Shown here: piece after piece, positions 3,983 to 43,300 of the stretch
Layout of the letters: every line of letters begins with the position of its first letter
Position numbering within the stretch: position 1 is the stretch's first letter
NCBI GenBank assembly: GCA_034435095.1
Contig: DAOTYC010000060.1
Location: forward strand, 2,577-66,576
From: Anaerolineae bacterium
GTDB lineage: Bacteria > Chloroflexota > Anaerolineae > DAOTYC01
Direction of reading: 5' to 3'
Length of the DNA: 64,000 nucleotides
Made by a program: the position numbers and the translations under genes
The notes under the pieces: model-generated
Databases searched by the model: none
Seen by the model: only the letters and a program-made list of their open reading frames with translations
What the model was told of the DNA's origin: nothing

Positions 3983-4230
3983 CTCTCCTCCCTCTATCCG
4001 GCAGGCTGCCGAATGGGCTGCATCGAACGGCACCCCTGAAGTTTTCCTGACAACAGGCACCGTCGCCAATACGGCGCAACCAGCACGGCAGCGAAGGTCA
4101 TATCAGGCTTTCAGCCAATGGCGGATGCCGTCTTGGTTGATTTCGAGTTTCTTCAGTTACAGCTCCGATTATACCTTAAGCGTATGCGACTGGCAAGTAC
4201 TGCCCGGCCGGTCGGTGCATCCAGGACTTC

Positions 4231-4335
4231 AGGCGAGTTAACAGAAGTCTCAACCCCGTCATGCTGAGCGCAGCGAAGCATCTCATTTCACGATGCACAA
4301 CGAGATTCTTCGCTTCGCTCAGAATGACGGCCAGT
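4231..4335. repeat. REP-like imperfect palindromic intergenic repeat, copy A
   Basis: cccGTCATGCTGAGCGCAGCGAAGCATCTC-17nt-GAGATTCTTCGCTTCGCTCAGAATGACGG. The arms are reverse complements with ~3 mismatches. The left flank ggtgcatccaggacttcaggcgagttaacagaagtctcaacc is shared with copy C at ~43196. Confidence 0.55.
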
Positions 4336-4485
4336 CGCAGGTCAGGTATGGAAACCCGACCTACGGCGGCAGGTTTGGAAATCTGCCCTAGGGCTCACCT
4401 AAAATTTCGGATACACCCGGGCCGGTCGATTGCGCCGTTCTCCCCCCATGATTGTCGCGGCTGACAATGACAAAATGGCGCACTG

Positions 4486-8205: not shown

Positions 8206-9381
8206 ATGGTGCGCCTGTTTTTGTTGAGGGCAATCGCCCGCTGGCGACCCTCGCATTGCCAAACACGCGCTCCTACGCCCTCGCCGGATTCCGTGTTGCT
8301 CATCCGCCCAGACCACCTGGGAGACATGCTCTTTACGATACCTGCCGTGCGGCATTTGCGTCAGGTCTGGCCTGCCGCCCGACTGACCATGTTGTGTGGT
8401 CCTTGGGCGCAGACGATAGCAGAGAGAAATCCATACCTGGATGAGGTGCTCATCTGCCAGTTCCCGTGGTTCTCGCGCCAACCGCGCAAATCGTTTCTCG
8501 ACCCGTATTGGCTCCTCCGCGAGGAAGCCAGACGCCTTCGGGAACGCGCCTTCGACCTTGCCATTGTCATGCGCTTTGACCACTGGTGGGGGGCCTGGCT
8601 GTCGTGCTGGGCGGGCATTCCCTGTCGCCTTGGATACGACATACCCGAAGTTGCCCCTTTCTTGACTCAGGCAGTGCCTTATGCGCAGGGTCGCCACGAA
8701 GTATTGCAGAATCTGGCTTTGGCTGAAGCGGCGACCGGCAGCTCAGCAAACGCTGATAGCGGGCGATTGGAGTTCTCGCCGACCGCAGAGGAGGTTGAAA
8801 CGGCGCAGCGACTGCTGGCCTCGGCGGGCGTGCAGTCCGAAGACCGGCTGGTGTGTGTCCATCCTGGGGCAGGCGCGCCGGTCAAGCTGTGGGACAATCG
8901 AGCGTGGGCGCAGGTGATCCAGGCACTGATGCGCGAATATGGCGTGAAGGTCATTCTGAGCGGCGGCCCCGGTGAGGCAAGTTTGTTGCGAGAGCTGGAG
9001 AGCCTGCTTGTTGCTGGTCTGGACTCCGGCGAGGCTGCCAGGGTGACAAACCTGGCAGGCCGAACCAACCTGGGCCAATTGGCCGCTGTGATGCAGCGAT
9101 GTCGCCTGGTGATGGGCGTTGATAGTGGGCCGCTGCATCTGGCAGTTGCCGTAGGTACGCCTACCCTGCACCTGTTTGGCCCGGCGGACGCCCGGCTGTT
9201 CGGCCCGTGGGGGGACCCACAGCGGCATCTGGTGGTTACGTCGCCTCTGGGATGCGCCCCGTGCAATCGAATGGATTATGCTCCGGCCGAACTGGACAAC
9301 CATCCCTGTATGCGCAACATCACGGTGGAATCGGTGCTGGCGGCCGCCCGCCGCCTGCTGGATGCCGGCCTACAGGACTGA
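8206..9381 (+). CDS. GT9-family glycosyltransferase (heptosyltransferase-like)
   Basis: LIRPDHLGDMLFTIPAVRHLR and GVDSGPLHLAVAVGTPTLHLFGP. The track start at 8002 overlaps the upstream gene by 160 nt. ATG ~8206 (MVRLFLL) just after the upstream stop is more plausible. Confidence 0.75.
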   Translation: MVRLFLLRAIARWRPSHCQTRAPTPSPDSVLLIRPDHLGDMLFTIPAVRHLRQVWPAARLTMLCGPWAQTIAERNPYLDEVLICQFPWFSRQPRKSFLDPYWLLREEARRLRERAFDLAIVMRFDHWWGAWLSCWAGIPCRLGYDIPEVAPFLTQAVPYAQGRHEVLQNLALAEAATGSSANADSGRLEFSPTAEEVETAQRLLASAGVQSEDRLVCVHPGAGAPVKLWDNRAWAQVIQALMREYGVKVILSGGPGEASLLRELESLLVAGLDSGEAARVTNLAGRTNLGQLAAVMQRCRLVMGVDSGPLHLAVAVGTPTLHLFGPADARLFGPWGDPQRHLVVTSPLGCAPCNRMDYAPAELDNHPCMRNITVESVLAAARRLLDAGLQD

Positions 9382-21414: not shown

Positions 21415-22164
21415 ATGAGAACAGCAGCAAAGACCTGGATTGTCTTAGCCATAGCCTTTTTCCTGTTAAGCTCTTCCCTCGGATGCGCCATCGTGAAGGT
21501 TGTGCGCAAGGGGACAAGCGAGCCAGCGCAGGTGCAACAGCCAAAGATGGCCGAGGTTCAACCGACGTTCACGCCCGTCCCGACGCATACGCCGGTGCCT
21601 ACCTTCACGCCGACGCCGACGCTTACGGCGACACAGACGCCAACGAATACGCCGTCCCCGACAGCCACACCGCTGCCTCCAACCGATACGCCTGTACCGA
21701 CCAACACACCAGTCCCGCCCACCAAGCCTCCGCCGCCGACCGATACGCCTGTGCCGCCAACGGATACGCCCGTCCCATTTATCACTGCGCACGGGGTCGT
21801 CGGTACCTTAACTTTGATTGACCCACAGCCAAGTTATCGCAACCGAAGCGCGGTGAAGCTCCGCTGGTCGGCAAAGAACGAGACCGGTGCGCCAATCGAG
21901 TTCGGCATTCTCGGCATCACCATGAACACGGGTACGGGACCCAACCAGTTCCAGAGTACCCGTTCGGGGCCAAACAACAAACTGGAGCCTGGTGAGGAGA
22001 TTGGCGCGGAAGAAATCGTCAGGCCGCTCCGCTTTGGAGAGCAGGTTGAGGGCGACGTCCTCATCGTCTTGTCAATGTGTTTTAACAAATATGACGAATG
22101 TGAAAAACCAGGCGCGGATTGGGAGAATATCTCTCCACCTGTTGTGATTCATATTGTGCCGTAA
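21415..22164 (+). CDS. secreted/anchored protein with a Pro/Thr-rich linker and small C-terminal domain
   Basis: Signal-like MRTAAKTWIVLAIAFFLLSSSLGC, a ~80-aa PT linker (PTFTPVPTHTPVPTFTPTPT...) and a ~120-aa globular C-terminus. The start could instead be 21397 or 21352. Confidence 0.5.
   Translation: MRTAAKTWIVLAIAFFLLSSSLGCAIVKVVRKGTSEPAQVQQPKMAEVQPTFTPVPTHTPVPTFTPTPTLTATQTPTNTPSPTATPLPPTDTPVPTNTPVPPTKPPPPTDTPVPPTDTPVPFITAHGVVGTLTLIDPQPSYRNRSAVKLRWSAKNETGAPIEFGILGITMNTGTGPNQFQSTRSGPNNKLEPGEEIGAEEIVRPLRFGEQVEGDVLIVLSMCFNKYDECEKPGADWENISPPVVIHIVP
21565..21785 (+). repeat. imperfect tandem DNA repeats encoding the PT linker
   Basis: Reiterated units such as ccgaccgatacgcctgtgccg, ccaaccgatacgcctgtaccg and ccaacggatacgcccgtccc. 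These are coding low-complexity repeats, not CRISPR. Confidence 0.5.
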
Positions 22165-39510: not shown

Positions 39511-40332
39511 TCAGAAGACACCCGGCGACAACACTGAATAGGATAATACCACAACTGCGAGGATTAGCAAAGAGGTGCCGGCGACCAGGGCATCTTGCCC
39601 TTGCAGCCGCAACTGTTGAGCAGAACGTATCTCACCATCGAAGCCTCGCGCGCGCATCGCCAGGTAGATGCGCTCGCTTCGTTCGTAGCTGCGGAGGAAC
39701 AGCGTCCCGGCCATCTGGCCCGTCACTTTGGCGCGCCAGGCCAGCGTGCCGCCTGCCTGCCTGTCGGGGCGCGCGCTGCGCGCGTCGCGGGCGGCCATCA
39801 TCCGCCTCACTTCGTCTACCAGCACAAACAGGTAACGGTACATAAAGCCCAACATTGACACCAGCAGAGGGGGCAGTCCCAAACTGCGCAGGCCACACAA
39901 CAGTTGAGTGAACGGCGTGGTAGCTGACAGGATGAGCGCGGCCTGGAGACCAAGCCAGGATTTCAGGAGGATAGACAGGAAGCGGACAAGGCCCTCGGCC
40001 GTGGCCGTCAGGTGCAACGACCCCCAGGCCACGCTGAACAGCGGCTGCCCGGGCGTGGTAAACACCAGGGCCAGGGCAGCGAGCGCGAACGGCAAAGCTA
40101 CGGTGGAGCGACTGAGCATGGCGCCGAGAGGCAGGCGAGCAGCCCAGATTGCAAGCAGGATCAAGCCCCAAAAAGCCAGCGGCCAACTGAAGTGGACATC
40201 GAGCGGCAGGCTGGTCAGCACGACGATGTACAGCACAACTACTGCCAGCTTGACGCGGGCATCCAGACGATGCACCGGACTGGAGCGCGATATATACGGC
40301 TCAAGCTCGAACATGTTGATTGTCACTGTCAA
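39511..40332 (-). CDS. cbiQ: ECF transporter T component (CbiQ/EcfT)
   Basis: HRLDARVKLAVVVLYIVVL and the conserved TM core. Confidence 0.8.
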   Translation of the reverse strand: MTVTINMFELEPYISRSSPVHRLDARVKLAVVVLYIVVLTSLPLDVHFSWPLAFWGLILLAIWAARLPLGAMLSRSTVALPFALAALALVFTTPGQPLFSVAWGSLHLTATAEGLVRFLSILLKSWLGLQAALILSATTPFTQLLCGLRSLGLPPLLVSMLGFMYRYLFVLVDEVRRMMAARDARSARPDRQAGGTLAWRAKVTGQMAGTLFLRSYERSERIYLAMRARGFDGEIRSAQQLRLQGQDALVAGTSLLILAVVVLSYSVLSPGVF

Positions 40333-40622
40333 ATTCCGGCGGACTTGTTCTGTGTCTTAAGCCAGCTTGCCAACCCATATCCCAGCGCAAACAGGAGAAG
40401 CGTGCCCACCACTCCGGCCACAATGGTCGCCAGGGCTTCATCAGGAATGCCGGGAAACACATAATCGGGAATGATGTGATAAAACGGCTCGGTGGCACGG
40501 TCAATGAAGCCATGATCTTCGGCCACGCGCTCCAGCCCATCAGGGTATGAAGACGCCAAAGGAGATGCCACAGCCAATAGCAACGCGACGAACAAGGCGA
40601 TAAGCCACCAACCCCTTTTCAT
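40329..40622 (-). CDS. PDGLE-domain membrane protein (CbiN-like accessory component)
   Basis: SSYPDGLERVAEDHGFIDRATEP flanked by two TM helices. Confidence 0.65.
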   Translation of the reverse strand: MKRGWWLIALFVALLLAVASPLASSYPDGLERVAEDHGFIDRATEPFYHIIPDYVFPGIPDEALATIVAGVVGTLLLFALGYGLASWLKTQNKSAGI

Positions 40623-40628
40623 TGTTCC

Positions 40629-41291
40629 TTACCCCCTCTCACCAATAGTTGACAAGGTCGGTCCATAGCTCAACAGGTCGCGCCGTGTGGCGTAAATCAA
40701 CGCCATCGCCGCAGTGGTGATCAGGCCCTCGCCAATACCAATCAGGGCATGAACGCTGCCCATAGCCGGGATGGCCAGGCCAAACGGCGAAGTCCCCGAC
40801 AATCCCAGCTCAACAGCGCAAGCCAGTGAGGCAATCACGATAGACAACCATGCCGCACCAAACCGACTGATCCATAACCCCACCGAATTTTTGCCAACAA
40901 TTTGGGTCAATACCAGGTAAGTAAGATAGGCGGAGAATGTGCCGACGACGGCCATATTGGTAATGTTGGCGCCCAGCACGATCAGGCCGCCGTCCTGGAA
41001 CAGCAGGGCCTGGACAGCGACGACGCAGGTCATGATCAGCACACTCACCCACGGCCCGACCAGCAGTGTAGCCAACGCTGCACCGAGGAAATGTCCTGAT
41101 GTGCCGCCAGCGACGGTGAAATTGAGCATCTGGGCGGCGAAGATGAAAGCTGCCAAGACGCCGGTGAGCGGGACCTGCCGCTCACCCAGGGCATGTCGGC
41201 TGCGGGTCAGGGCAAGCCAGATGAAAAAGACGGCAACAATCCACAACACAGCCGAAACCGCCGTGCTCAGGAAACCGTCTGGAATGTGCAT
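40629..41291 (-). CDS. cbiM: CbiM/NikM-type substrate-capture component
   Basis: N-terminus MHIPDGFLS at the internal ATG ~41291, and a polytopic membrane core. Confidence 0.8.
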   Translation of the reverse strand: MHIPDGFLSTAVSAVLWIVAVFFIWLALTRSRHALGERQVPLTGVLAAFIFAAQMLNFTVAGGTSGHFLGAALATLLVGPWVSVLIMTCVVAVQALLFQDGGLIVLGANITNMAVVGTFSAYLTYLVLTQIVGKNSVGLWISRFGAAWLSIVIASLACAVELGLSGTSPFGLAIPAMGSVHALIGIGEGLITTAAMALIYATRRDLLSYGPTLSTIGERG

Positions 41292-41424
41292 CGGTTGTTC
41301 CGTCACGCGTTCGGTAACCAATGGAGCAATCGTAAACAACATCTTAACCTCCTTTGTGTCATTTTGCCTTCCGAGCTCCCCCACGGCGCGTGGGCGCGCC
41401 GCTCATTGGGGAAGAAACACCGCC

Positions 41425-41512
41425 CTATCCCGTCATTCTGAGCGAAGCGAAGAATCTCGCGCTGGCAGGCGTTGAGATTCTTCGGCGCTACCGCGCCTCA
41501 GAATGACGGAAC
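41425..41512. repeat. REP-like palindromic intergenic repeat, copy B
   Basis: ccCGTCATTCTGAGCGAAGCGAAGAATCTC-15 nt-GAGATTCTTCGgcgctaccgcgcCTCAGAATGACGG. The right arm carries a 13-nt insertion. Confidence 0.55.
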
Positions 41513-41558
41513 AGGGTAGTTTCCTAGTAGAGCGACAGGGTGTCGCCCGGCAGGCTCA

Positions 41559-41587
41559 CAAAACAAAAGACCACCTTCGCCTGGTCT
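41559..41587 (-). terminator. rho-independent terminator (minus strand) downstream of the HpcH aldolase gene, inside the cbiM upstream region
   Basis: Minus-strand AGACCA-ggcgaagg-TGGTCT followed by TTTGTTTTG. Confidence 0.5.
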
Positions 41588-41762
41588 TCAGACCGGCTCA
41601 AGGTGATCTTCAGATCTACCCTAACGGCTATTACAAGACTGGGGTCAAGATCCCCGTCCGTCAGACTTCATGCCTGACAGAAGCAAGAGTCTTTATAACA
41701 CGGAAACACAGCGCTGTCAAATGCGACCAGTTCCGCCAATGATTCGGACGTAACCTTGCGGT

Positions 41763-42539
41763 CTATTTCAGCGCAGAACGCAGGGCCTTCAGAGCGTTTT
41801 GAGAAGCGTTCATGATCATGGGAATATCGCCCGACCACGTGATGACGCGCATACCTTTGGCCATCCACTCCTTCAAGTGATCGACGTTCCCGGTGTGAAT
41901 GCCGGCCGCCACGCCATGTTTCTGGCAGGCAGCAATCACTTTTTCTATGCTCGCCACCTCAAGCGGATGGGTCAGCTCCCCCGGGATGCCCAGCGACACC
42001 GATAGGTCATTCGGGCCAATCAGAGCAACGTCCACGCCCGGAACGGACACCATCTCGTCAATGTTCTCGATAGCCTCGCGGCTCTCAATCTGAATGATAA
42101 CCAGTGTGTGTTCATTGGCCCATTCCATGAATTCCTTGGTGGGAATACTGAGGTAGTCCGAATGGGCGCGCTGCACTGCGCAGCCTCGCTCGCCCAGTGG
42201 CGGGTACTTCATGTAACTCACCACCCGGCGCACCTGGTCTGGCGTGTCCACTCTGGGGACCATCAGGCCTTGCGCGCCGGCGTCGAGTGGGCGCGACATG
42301 AGGAAATACACCAGGTCGGGCACGCGGATGAACGGCGCGATGCCGGCCAGCCGCGCCACCCTGACCATGTCGGCGACGGTTTGCAAGTCGTAAGGGCCGT
42401 GCTCCATGTCAATGAAGAAGAAATCGAAGCCCGCCGCAGCGAGGATCTGGGCGATGCCAGGCGAACGCACCTCCTGAACCATCGTGCCGAAAACGGTCTC
42501 GCCGCGTTTGAGGGCGAGCTTGACCCTGTTCTCCCTCAT
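41763..42539 (-). CDS. HpcH/HpaI-family aldolase (2-keto-3-deoxy-sugar-acid aldolase-like)
   Basis: GTMVQEVRSPGIAQILAAAGFDFFFIDMEHGPYD...GAQGLMVPRVDTPDQ. Confidence 0.8.
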   Translation of the reverse strand: MRENRVKLALKRGETVFGTMVQEVRSPGIAQILAAAGFDFFFIDMEHGPYDLQTVADMVRVARLAGIAPFIRVPDLVYFLMSRPLDAGAQGLMVPRVDTPDQVRRVVSYMKYPPLGERGCAVQRAHSDYLSIPTKEFMEWANEHTLVIIQIESREAIENIDEMVSVPGVDVALIGPNDLSVSLGIPGELTHPLEVASIEKVIAACQKHGVAAGIHTGNVDHLKEWMAKGMRVITWSGDIPMIMNASQNALKALRSALK

Positions 42540-42715
42540 GGCTTTTGCTCTTTCTCTTGTGCCTGTGGTTCATCGTAGACGCCGGACGACGCTTTCCTGA
42601 ACTCGCGGATGGCTTTGCCCAAAGCACCTCCGACATCGCCCAGCTTGCCAACCCCAAACACCAGGACAACGATCACCAGGATAATGATGAGCTCCGGAAC
42701 TCCAAGGTGAGGCAT
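42536..42715 (-). CDS. tatA: twin-arginine translocase subunit TatA/E
   Basis: 59 aa, MPHLGVPELIIILVIVVLVFGVGKLGDVGGALGKAIREFRKAS... Its stop overlaps the aldolase start (ATGA). It is below the ORF-track cutoff. Confidence 0.8.
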   Translation of the reverse strand: MPHLGVPELIIILVIVVLVFGVGKLGDVGGALGKAIREFRKASSGVYDEPQAQEKEQKP

Positions 42716-42811: not shown

Positions 42812-43012
42812 CTACCCCTTTGTCTCTTCTTCTGATTTCCTGGCTTCGGCGAGCTCTTTCTTCGGTTGATCATCCTCGCCAGAGGACGCCTTCTTGAACT
42901 CGCGGATGCCTCTGCCAAGCGCACCTCCCAGATCGCCCAGTTTCCCCACACCGAACACGATTACGATAATTACCAGAATAATCAGCAGCTCTGTAACACC
43001 AAGATGAGGCAT
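42812..43012 (-). CDS. tatA: twin-arginine translocase subunit TatA/E (second paralog)
   Basis: MPHLGVTELLIILVIIVIVFGVGKLGDLGGALGRGIREFKKAS..., starting at the internal ATG ~43012. Confidence 0.8.
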   Translation of the reverse strand: MPHLGVTELLIILVIIVIVFGVGKLGDLGGALGRGIREFKKASSGEDDQPKKELAEARKSEEETKG

Positions 43013-43195
43013 GACCCGACCCTCCTTATGCCAATAATCCGTGGCGCGTACCTGACGCGCACTGCGACGCCGACTTGCCCTCCGCCGGCACACCACGTGA
43101 AACACAACGCAGCATGGCCGTATGTCGAAGCAGTTCTTTACCCATTATAACACAGAAACGACCAGCCGACAAGTTCGGGCAACCTGGGGGTGCAT

Positions 43196-43300
43196 CCAGA
43201 ATTTTAGGCGAGTCAGCAGAAGCCTCAACTGCGTCATGCTGAGCCGAAGCCCTGAGCGCAGCGAAGGGGCAGCGAAGAATCTCAAACCACGAAGCACACG
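43196..43300. repeat. REP-like repeat, copy C (left module conserved, right arm degenerate)
   Basis: ggtgcatccagaattttaggcgagtcagcagaagcctcaactgcGTCATGCTGAGCcgaagccctgagcgCAGCGAAGgggcagcGAAGAATCTC. This shares ~70 nt with copy A. It is followed by a cacgaagca x3 micro-repeat. Confidence 0.5.

Follow-up and report, generated by a model that had tools for sequence, protein, structure and literature searches.

A (C/T)GTC-tagged REP-like DNA hairpin at three intergenic sites of an Anaerolineae genome, conserved across bacterial phyla and tailed phages

Three intergenic sites in a 64,000-nucleotide (nt) stretch of an Anaerolineae bacterium (GenBank assembly GCA_034435095.1, contig DAOTYC010000060.1, positions 2,577 to 66,576), called the window below, carry copies of one short palindrome and raise the question of what kind of element this is. 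A first-pass annotation had read the copies as repeats of the repetitive extragenic palindrome (REP) or bacterial interspersed mosaic element (BIME) type, or as a small-RNA or regulatory module, and had considered an origin from a miniature inverted-repeat transposable element (MITE) uncertain. The window holds five units in total, namely the inverted dimers at 4257-4329 (site A) and 41431-41508 (site B) and a single arm at site C. The repeat is a REP-like hairpin whose single-stranded tag is conserved; it is itself conserved, and covaries, in more than 20 phyla and in tailed phages. We consider it likely that the sites carry, in five copies, a non-autonomous 28-nt DNA hairpin element of the REP type, which would act as single-stranded DNA and be moved by a putative partner in trans.

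The 28-nt unit opens with a (C/T)GTC tag, which is followed by the 5-bp stem ATNCT/AGN'AT, two tandem G·A mismatches (contexts T-GA-G and C-GA-A), a GC/GC mini-stem that closes a GNA triloop, and a CTC tail; its hairpin can be written as the 21-mer ATTCTGAGCGAAGCGAAGAAT. A covariance model built solely from the units of other genomes (R1) was searched against the entire window without filtering and matched 41430-41460 (+), 4300-4330 (-), 4256-4286 (+), 41472-41509 (-) and 43250-43268 (+). Nothing else credible was found by R1 in the 64 kb, the next match (E=0.31) lying inside a 1379-aa open reading frame (ORF). The units and their spacers are as follows.

4257..4284, + strand: unit A1, with CGTC tag, hairpin ATGCT-GA-GC-GCA-GC-GA-AGCAT and CTC tail; R1 46.5 bits, E=2.4e-10
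4285..4301, no strand: 17-nt spacer of dimer A, in alignment partially homologous to 43284-43300 at site C
4302..4329, - strand: unit A2, with CGTC, ATTCT-GA-GC-GAA-GC-GA-AGAAT and CTC; R1 48.2 bits, E=8e-11
41431..41458, + strand: unit B1, 30 nt identical to A2; R1 48.5 bits, E=6.7e-11
41459..41473, no strand: spacer of dimer B, from sequence and fold
41474..41508, - strand: unit B2, with tag, foot and tail intact; R1 30.5 bits, E=5e-6
43232..43283, + strand: site C, a rearranged single arm; R1 matches 43250-43268 only, E=0.0017

Units A1 and A2 differ at stem position 3, where A1 has G-C and A2 has T-A, and together form a tag-outward heterodimer. The 5-nt apex of unit B2 is replaced by a 12-nt insertion, GCGCGGTAGCGC, which forms a small GC hairpin of its own. 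Site C reads CGTC-ATGCTGAGC / CGAAGC / a nested untagged unit CCCTGAGCGCAGCGAAGGG (43250-43268) / GCAGCGAAGAAT-CTC; its outer halves are unpaired, with a G facing an A at stem position 3, and it lacks a partner arm. Site C is a decayed copy. The common core reported earlier for the three sites is present at all of them; the 21-nt core GTCATKCTGAGCGNAGCGAAG occurs three times in the window against 0.01 expected and its 12-nt half GTCATKCTGAGC five times against 0.00. Inverted partners at sites A and B were likewise confirmed. Arm 4301-4330 is the perfect complement of arm 41430-41459 along 30 nt (100%), and both dimers fold into long hairpins (z = -7.2 to -8.6), of ~30 bp in the RNA folding that had been suggested as a check, the single mismatches of dimer A falling exactly at the A1/A2 differences, while site C gives z=+0.6. 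An exact half-unit, GTCATTCTGAGC, at 8950-8961 (+) lies in frame (VILSGGPGE) within a Glyco_transf_9 (GT9) gene without the 3' half, and was judged a coding coincidence, with a probability of ~0.015 by our own estimate.

Is it the sequence or the fold that is kept? One genome per species was scanned with the pattern GTCATNCTGAGCGNAGCGAAGNATC, in which 22 of 25 bases are fixed and for which we estimate ~0.07 chance matches. The scan yielded at least 119 stretches, with 152 matches among those listed. In 146 of these 152 listed matches the free stem positions N1 and N3 are Watson-Crick complementary (C-G 72, T-A 58, G-C 14, A-T 2), and among the same matches the middle N, in the loop, takes all four bases. 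A second scan was based on structure only (5 nt, GA, 2 nt, GNA, 2 nt, GA, 5 nt, complementarity required) and gave 0 matches in 50 shuffles of the window. It revealed further compensated variants, namely ATTCCGAGCGAAGCGAGGAAT, ATTTCGAACGAAGTGAGAAAT, ATCCTGAACGAAGTGAAGGAT, ACCCT...AGGGT and ATTCTGAGTGCAACGAAGAAT. Over 136 distinct units all 7 pairs change on both sides, compared with 3.6 in shuffles, and 98% of the intra-arm cells pair, compared with at most 53% when the partners are slid. As the 136-unit alignment took in only units with at least 6 of 7 pairs formed, the N1/N3 count provides the unbiased test of covariation. These data show that the fold, and not the sequence alone, is maintained in the unit.

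The first stem pair is A-T in 357 of 367 units and the second is T-A in 354 of 367; these foot bases were fixed in the initial scan and free in the structural one. GTC precedes 362 of 383 skeleton matches, and the base before it (n=150) is T in 123 (82%), C in 20 (13%) and another base in 7; in the window CGTC is carried by the four tagged units of sites A and B and by the outer arm of site C. The 3' tail starts with C, followed by T (80%) and then C (55%). At the other end of the hairpin, the apex is GCGNAGC with a free N, or one of the compensated variants ACGNAGT and GTGNAAC.

Comparison of the two arms of a dimer separates the small hairpin from the long one. In 19 of 46 intact dimers (41%), site A among them, the arms differ at stem position 3 and each arm is nevertheless self-complementary, so that arms match in only 59% of dimers whereas 98% of the intra-arm cells pair. 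Therefore, the conserved structure is the small hairpin. The long hairpins described earlier do form between the arms at sites A and B, but the structure under selection is the small hairpin within each arm.

The apex gives a first indication of the nucleic acid concerned. GCGNAGC with a free N is the exact published sequence requirement of the stable DNA mini-hairpin d(GCGNAGC), which melts at 70-76 °C, is nuclease resistant and is far more stable as DNA than as RNA (PMC13037366). This mini-hairpin is known from phage origins, ssi signals, N4 promoters and the recognition sites of primase and N4 RNA polymerase (PMC13037366). It forms the apex of every unit here, and is not known as the core of a dispersed genomic repeat with tag and foot. 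In addition, stem mismatches are of the G·T type in 13 cases and of the A·C type in 16, with no excess of G·U. Taken over mismatch types, the absence of a consistent sense bias and the absence of a U-tract, the unit statistics are DNA-like rather than RNA-like.

REPs are usually regarded as lineage-specific and as co-evolving with a resident REP-associated tyrosine transposase (RAYT). The present core has a different distribution. By record titles the matches of the species scan, in at least 119 stretches, span more than 20 phyla, including Nitrospirota, Chloroflexota, Acidobacteriota, Planctomycetota, Bacteroidota, Bacillota, Pseudomonadota, Verrucomicrobiota and Omnitrophota. Carriers include Saccharibacteria and Gracilibacteria of the Candidate Phyla Radiation (CPR), cultured Hymenobacter, Mucilaginibacter and Pedobacter, and plasmids of Hymenobacter, Planktothrix, Calothrix, Granulicella and Novosphingobium. 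The core is also found in at least 120 viral stretches of IMG/VR, of which ~30 belong to one tailed-phage lineage with major head and portal genes. Curated phage genomes gave essentially none, with one weak match, and 5,426 E. coli genomes gave no core match. The core is a hairpin conserved across phyla and not a species-specific REP. The REP/BIME-like reading of the first-pass annotation is supported, in that these are short intergenic palindromes, mostly in inverted dimers and without target-site duplication; beyond that reading, the repeat is not genome-specific and its tag is (C/T)GTC instead of GTAG.

On a Planktothrix agardhii plasmid (AP017994.1; L324:1440-1725, loci being cited by such numbers) a ~100-nt dimer whose apices are expanded is repeated three times in tandem, next to a gene that is annotated as a PglX methyltransferase of the BREX system in the near-identical NZ_LR882951.1, and as hypothetical ORFs in AP017994.1. 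The array sits where the homology to a related plasmid starts. It was rejected as a presence/absence comparison, as it lies at a rearrangement boundary with no clean empty site.

In the genomes the units behave as REPs do. Units fall within crude ORFs in 18% of cases compared with 78% of random positions; protein-coding conservation was rejected as an explanation of the similarity. Sites between convergent genes are modestly enriched (29% vs 20% background), and those between divergent genes, such as site C, amount to 15% vs 20%. Units divide about equally into those with an inverted partner 60-150 nt away at most and single ones. The intact pairs comprise 46 with the tags outward, 5 with the tags inward and 14 in direct orientation, and their median gap is 35 nt. 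Flanking direct repeats around 87 dimers were at control level for k = 1-6, revealing no target-site duplication. For single units between co-directional genes the sense:antisense ratio is 14:8 in cells; in viruses, the phage lineage mentioned above excepted, it is 9:18. Outside that lineage there is thus no consistent orientation relative to genes. Related phages differ at the same intergenic position, which is empty in L221 and L267, holds a unit in L222 and L255 and holds a CAGAATGA array in L317. Relatives of the present organism with a 72-79% identical HpcH had no unit in 409 kb of metagenome loci. That comparison was set aside as an empty-site test, since synteny beyond tatA-HpcH is not kept and the intergenic DNA is unalignable, and it shows absence rather than insertion boundaries.

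Single units also appear to have a preference of strand, the G-rich strand lying on the locally C-skewed strand in 104 cases and on the other in 46 (cells 41:21, viruses 63:25). Dominance of one gene strand does not explain this bias; the stretches compared were ~4-15 kb long, mostly 8 kb (L001-L119, L204-L323).

Units sit inside larger repeats that are lineage-specific, and in L098 whole dimers are duplicated together with their spacers. In most of the loci L015, L021, L075, L083, L103 and L007 the dimers are nested in a longer conserved palindrome, ACAGGCTGCGGAAAAA...TTTTTCCGCAGCCTGT, of which L007 has the left half only. The loci with the ACAGGCTGCGGAAAAA palindrome are chiefly of Acidobacteriota, L103 being labelled Saccharimonadales, and the nesting is similar to what has been reported for some CGTC-1 and GTAG families, namely palindromes that serve as target or host. 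L093, L087, L106, L117, L018, L034, L035, L037, L047, L091, L098 and L005 carry short tandem duplications whose period is 18-22 nt. The repeat there comprises a few upstream bases and the first 10-14 nt of the unit, with the right border always at the hairpin apex, and 43232-43283 of the window is comparable. Duplications bordered by the apex would fit stalling or slippage of a polymerase, or nicking, at a folded DNA hairpin.

To which known repeats does the unit belong? The CGTC REP superfamily (CGTC-1 to CGTC-4), described by Di Nocera, De Gregorio and Rocco in 2013 (BMC Genomics 14:522, PMC3733652), includes Neisseria dRS3, which was equated with CGTC-1, and Rickettsia RPE-4 and RPE-6. Its members have a CGTC or TGTC tag (CCTC being accepted), stems that almost always begin with A-T, and short tails; they are intergenic, with a preference for unidirectional and convergent gene pairs, mostly form inverted dimers, may be embedded in larger palindromes, and were found in five phyla, mostly in Alphaproteobacteria, with no associated transposase (PMC3733652). 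The present family shares the unpaired CGTC/TGTC 5' tag, the stem starting A-T then T-A, and a short unpaired 3' tail that begins with C. It also shares the prevalence of inverted dimers of one polarity with spacers of ~20-100 nt, the intergenic position, the embedding in lineage-specific larger palindromes, the occurrence in distant phyla and, by probes of low sensitivity, the lack of a flanking transposase gene. However, its stem has 5 Watson-Crick pairs, 2 tandem G·A and 2 Watson-Crick pairs where theirs has 8-9 pairs with at most one mismatch. Its loop is a 3-nt GNA and theirs is 4-5 nt, its tail is CTC and theirs has the consensus CCA, and it occurs in more than 20 phyla and in phages instead of five phyla. 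The pruning rule of 2013 (at most one stem mismatch) would have removed this family, and its typical peptides are absent from the intragenic table of that paper (PMC3733652).

Units of the canonical CGTC-1 layout, TGTCATTCCCGCGAAGGCGGGAATCCA, co-occur with this family in L005 and L025. Other GTCAT-tagged hairpin families, GTCATTGCGAGGAACGAAGCAATC and GTCATTGCGAGCGAAGCGTGGCAATC, were seen in motif-bearing loci (L043, L039, L273), and the sharing of loci by several such families points to a superfamily with a common tag and foot and a differing upper stem. In open-access text, figures not covered, the core and half-core sequences gave only unrelated primer coincidences. As the unit has the (C/T)GTC tag rather than GTAG, we place it with the CGTC-tagged REPs; as it departs from their stem and loop, and as its peptides are absent from the 2013 table and its core from the open-access text searched, we file it as a new family, an uncatalogued branch of the CGTC/TGTC-tagged superfamily with a different stem and loop.

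The GTAG REPs and REPINs, including the BIMEs of E. coli, are also similar in being small imperfect hairpins with a conserved single-stranded tetranucleotide at the foot, arranged in intergenic inverted doublets without target duplication, and thought to act as single-stranded DNA. They differ in the tag, GT[AG]G against (C/T)GTC here. GTAG REPINs belong to particular lineages, in which they pass down vertically together with their RAYT, whereas the present core is nearly invariant across phyla and missing from the E. coli genomes, and no RAYT turned up with it.

The repeat class is one described in 2013, and it is the mechanism that we infer here. The unit would fold as a hairpin in single-stranded DNA, and a putative trans-acting enzyme may read the tag and the A-T foot and copy or move the unit, by analogy with HUH/Y1 enzymes, TnpA-REP and IS200/IS605. 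The Y1 enzymes TnpA-REP and those of IS200/IS605 read a guide tetranucleotide at the foot of a hairpin (PMC6006769). Effects on the gene pairs flanking the sites, YkuD/GT2 (A), HpcH/cbiM (B) and tatA/xpt (C), would be secondary, for example the blocking of exonucleases at transcript ends.

Several observations weigh against this proposal. Nearest-neighbour folding of a single unit is weak (-1.9 kcal/mol as DNA, -4.6 as RNA, z ~0), and for this reason the argument for single-unit stability is based on the published data on the mini-hairpin. Stem and loop miss the literal definition of 2013 (8-9 Watson-Crick pairs, 4-5 nt loop). Direct signs of movement are missing from this genome; all metagenome assemblies of the organism carry identical copies, and the copy number, three sites, is that of ~72 kb of the genome. 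In the one phage lineage the single units lie between late genes with a sense bias of 14:1, and the unit weakly matches the Rfam family AaHKsRNA41 (RF02901), Aggregatibacter small RNA 41, at ~21 of 28 positions by our own count. Finally, the association with a RAYT that the first-pass annotation had raised did not appear. A tblastn search of low sensitivity with two probes, which covered the window, a further 7.5 kb and 2.38 Mb of motif-bearing loci, gave no RAYT, Y1 or IS200-like ORF.

The tblastn matches to the RAYT/IS200 probes were dismissed as noise, among them one in L098 that lies in no ORF. Widely spaced arm pairs enclose ordinary genes such as groES-groEL (L066) and no transposase, by which an autonomous element was rejected. 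Clustering of the ORFs of 239 loci showed that only the structural genes of one phage lineage recur, and the ORFs of L268 had no Pfam matches. The surveys of 2013 (PMC3733652) and 2018 report no transposase for CGTC REPs either.

What kind of partner could serve so many hosts? It is conceivable, as a tentative extension, that the hairpin is the substrate of a putative widely transferred single-stranded-DNA enzyme or of a near-universal replication factor such as primase, and acts during replication. Such a substrate would explain why a non-coding core of 25 nt is near-invariant from CPR bacteria to Bacteroidota, Firmicutes and tailed phages. It would also explain why no RAYT accompanies the unit and why single units prefer the C-skewed strand.

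Around the units of the window, sites A and C are part of a larger composite, as they share a ~45-nt flank and part of the spacer. The flank noted earlier was recovered with 86% identity between 4214-4269 and 43189-43244, in the window at these two places only, and the similarity extends into the spacer (CACGAnGCACA). The flank has no match in the other motif-bearing loci and is genome-specific. Its parts are listed below.

4214..4256, + strand: 5' extension common to sites A and C (GGTGCATCCAG...CTCAAC), repeat family D6
43189..43231, + strand: second copy of the A/C 5' extension, by repeat and alignment evidence
43284..43300, + strand: segment resembling a spacer and homologous to that of dimer A, with a short CGAAGCACAC tandem after it

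Directly to the right of dimer A, at 4343-4394, lies a tandem direct repeat of 25 nt (CAGGTATGGAAACCCGACCTACGGC / CAGGTTTGGAAATCTGCCCTAGGGC, 80% identity, spacing 27), which is unique in the window.

The position of the three sites 5' of minus-strand genes for GT2, CbiM and TatA agrees with Pfam, which places CbiM together with PDGLE and CbiQ and also confirms the phosphoribosyltransferase. Sites A and B lie in addition 3' of minus-strand genes, encoding a YkuD-domain protein (A, the dimer being 156 nt from the gene) and an HpcH aldolase (B). Dimer B occupies the upstream region of the cbiM-PDGLE-cbiQ operon, between a terminator-like hairpin of the HpcH gene (41589->41566) and the start of cbiM. 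No cobalamin or other riboswitch was found by Rfam for this operon (39511-41342; upstream 41343-41762). On the minus strand, near-consensus sigma-70-like hexamers are found at 4196->4168 (TTGCCA-17-TATAAT) and 43172->43144 (TTGTCG-17-TATAAT, with an upstream TG), both pairs 16-18 nt past the end of the A/C flank and pointing at GT2 and tatA. Local effects of the units on these genes are speculative. Two tandem tatA paralogues (42536-42715, 42813-43013) explain repeat D1 of the window (74% identity), and a Pro/Thr-rich coding repeat explains D2 (21640-21774).

Could the unit act as RNA instead? A structured RNA module, whether a 3'-end protector or terminator, a small RNA, a set of dimers serving as RNase III sites or a cis leader such as one ahead of cbiM, is the alternative that survives best, and we regard it as unlikely. 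As RNA, dimers A and B form hairpins of ~30 bp (z -7 to -8.6), but the 41% of dimers with mutually mismatched arms argue that a long RNA stem is not what is conserved. Dimer B may sit in a leader, given its place between the terminator-like hairpin and cbiM, and sites between convergent genes are somewhat enriched, whereas 15% of sites, site C included, lie between divergent genes. The sense bias in the one phage lineage and the resemblance to AaHKsRNA41 do make a role as RNA possible in some contexts. Outside that lineage, however, there is no general orientation bias (14:8 and 9:18), and the likeness to RF02901 lies in the palindrome, whose arms CGGCTTGCTGAGCTTGCCGAAGCATC resemble the unit and which for that reason is matched by both strands of site A. 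Site A scores 26.0 bits against a gathering threshold of 97, and tag and apex differ. No Rfam family reached its gathering level in the window, a relaxed search giving only AaHKsRNA41 and a microRNA artefact. In addition, the numbers of G·T-type and A·C-type mismatches (13 vs 16) show no excess of G·U, and the GNA triloop with free N is the signature of the DNA mini-hairpin (PMC13037366). An intrinsic (Rho-independent) terminator was rejected, since no U-tract follows the hairpin, the CTC being followed by unbiased sequence, and the terminator scan passes over the units.

A binding site for a host factor or a promoter-proximal module, with the A/C flank as an upstream promoter element for GT2 and tatA, appears improbable. 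The sigma-70-like hexamers stand 16-18 nt beyond the shared flank at both sites, but consensus promoter matches are no evidence of function, and the flank occurs in this genome alone, twice. Mini-hairpins similar to the apex do occur at the recognition sites of primase and N4 RNA polymerase (PMC13037366), and the strand bias of 104 vs 46 would fit a process linked to replication. The covariation, on the other hand, keeps pairing and not base identity, which makes a double-stranded operator unlikely, and copy number and position vary among close relatives, unlike those of a conserved regulatory site.

Classical MITEs, that is, remnants of a deleted DDE-type insertion sequence with the two arms as its terminal inverted repeats, were rejected as very improbable, because the dimers, although 60-150 nt long with inverted ends and in some genomes duplicated whole with their spacers (L098), show no target-site duplication, about half of the units are single, a double-stranded terminal repeat leaves the covariation within each arm unexplained, and neither a transposase between wide arm pairs nor a full-length insertion sequence with these ends was seen. 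The 9-bp direct repeat GGCCGGTCG (4206, 4420), which had been taken to bracket site A, is no target duplication: chance alone predicts about one copy in each window, and the repeat is not mirrored at site C, which shares only 4214-4300 with site A.

We therefore retain the REP-like DNA hairpin element as the most probable reading. The palindromes also have practical consequences. They are points at which metagenome contigs of this organism are broken or fold back: L120 opens with a further copy of the site B region (1-247, 89% identity) ahead of collinear sequence, and L203 ends 31 nt from dimer A (window 4361). They also yield spurious small ORFs, whose translations include peptides such as VILSEAKNL and ILRFAQND.

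A REP-like hairpin that keeps 22 of 25 core positions in more than 20 phyla, plasmids and phages departs from the view of REPs as lineage-specific, and this conservation together with the GA/GNA mini-hairpin core makes it of more interest than an ordinary species-specific REP. It connects a dispersed genomic repeat with the biophysically exceptional mini-hairpin d(GCGNAGC), and supplies a very large set of sequences for comparative work on how CGTC-type REPs arise and are mobilised. If the proposal is true, the identity of the partner would tell how the CGTC-type REPs are made and moved, a question that has stood since 2013.

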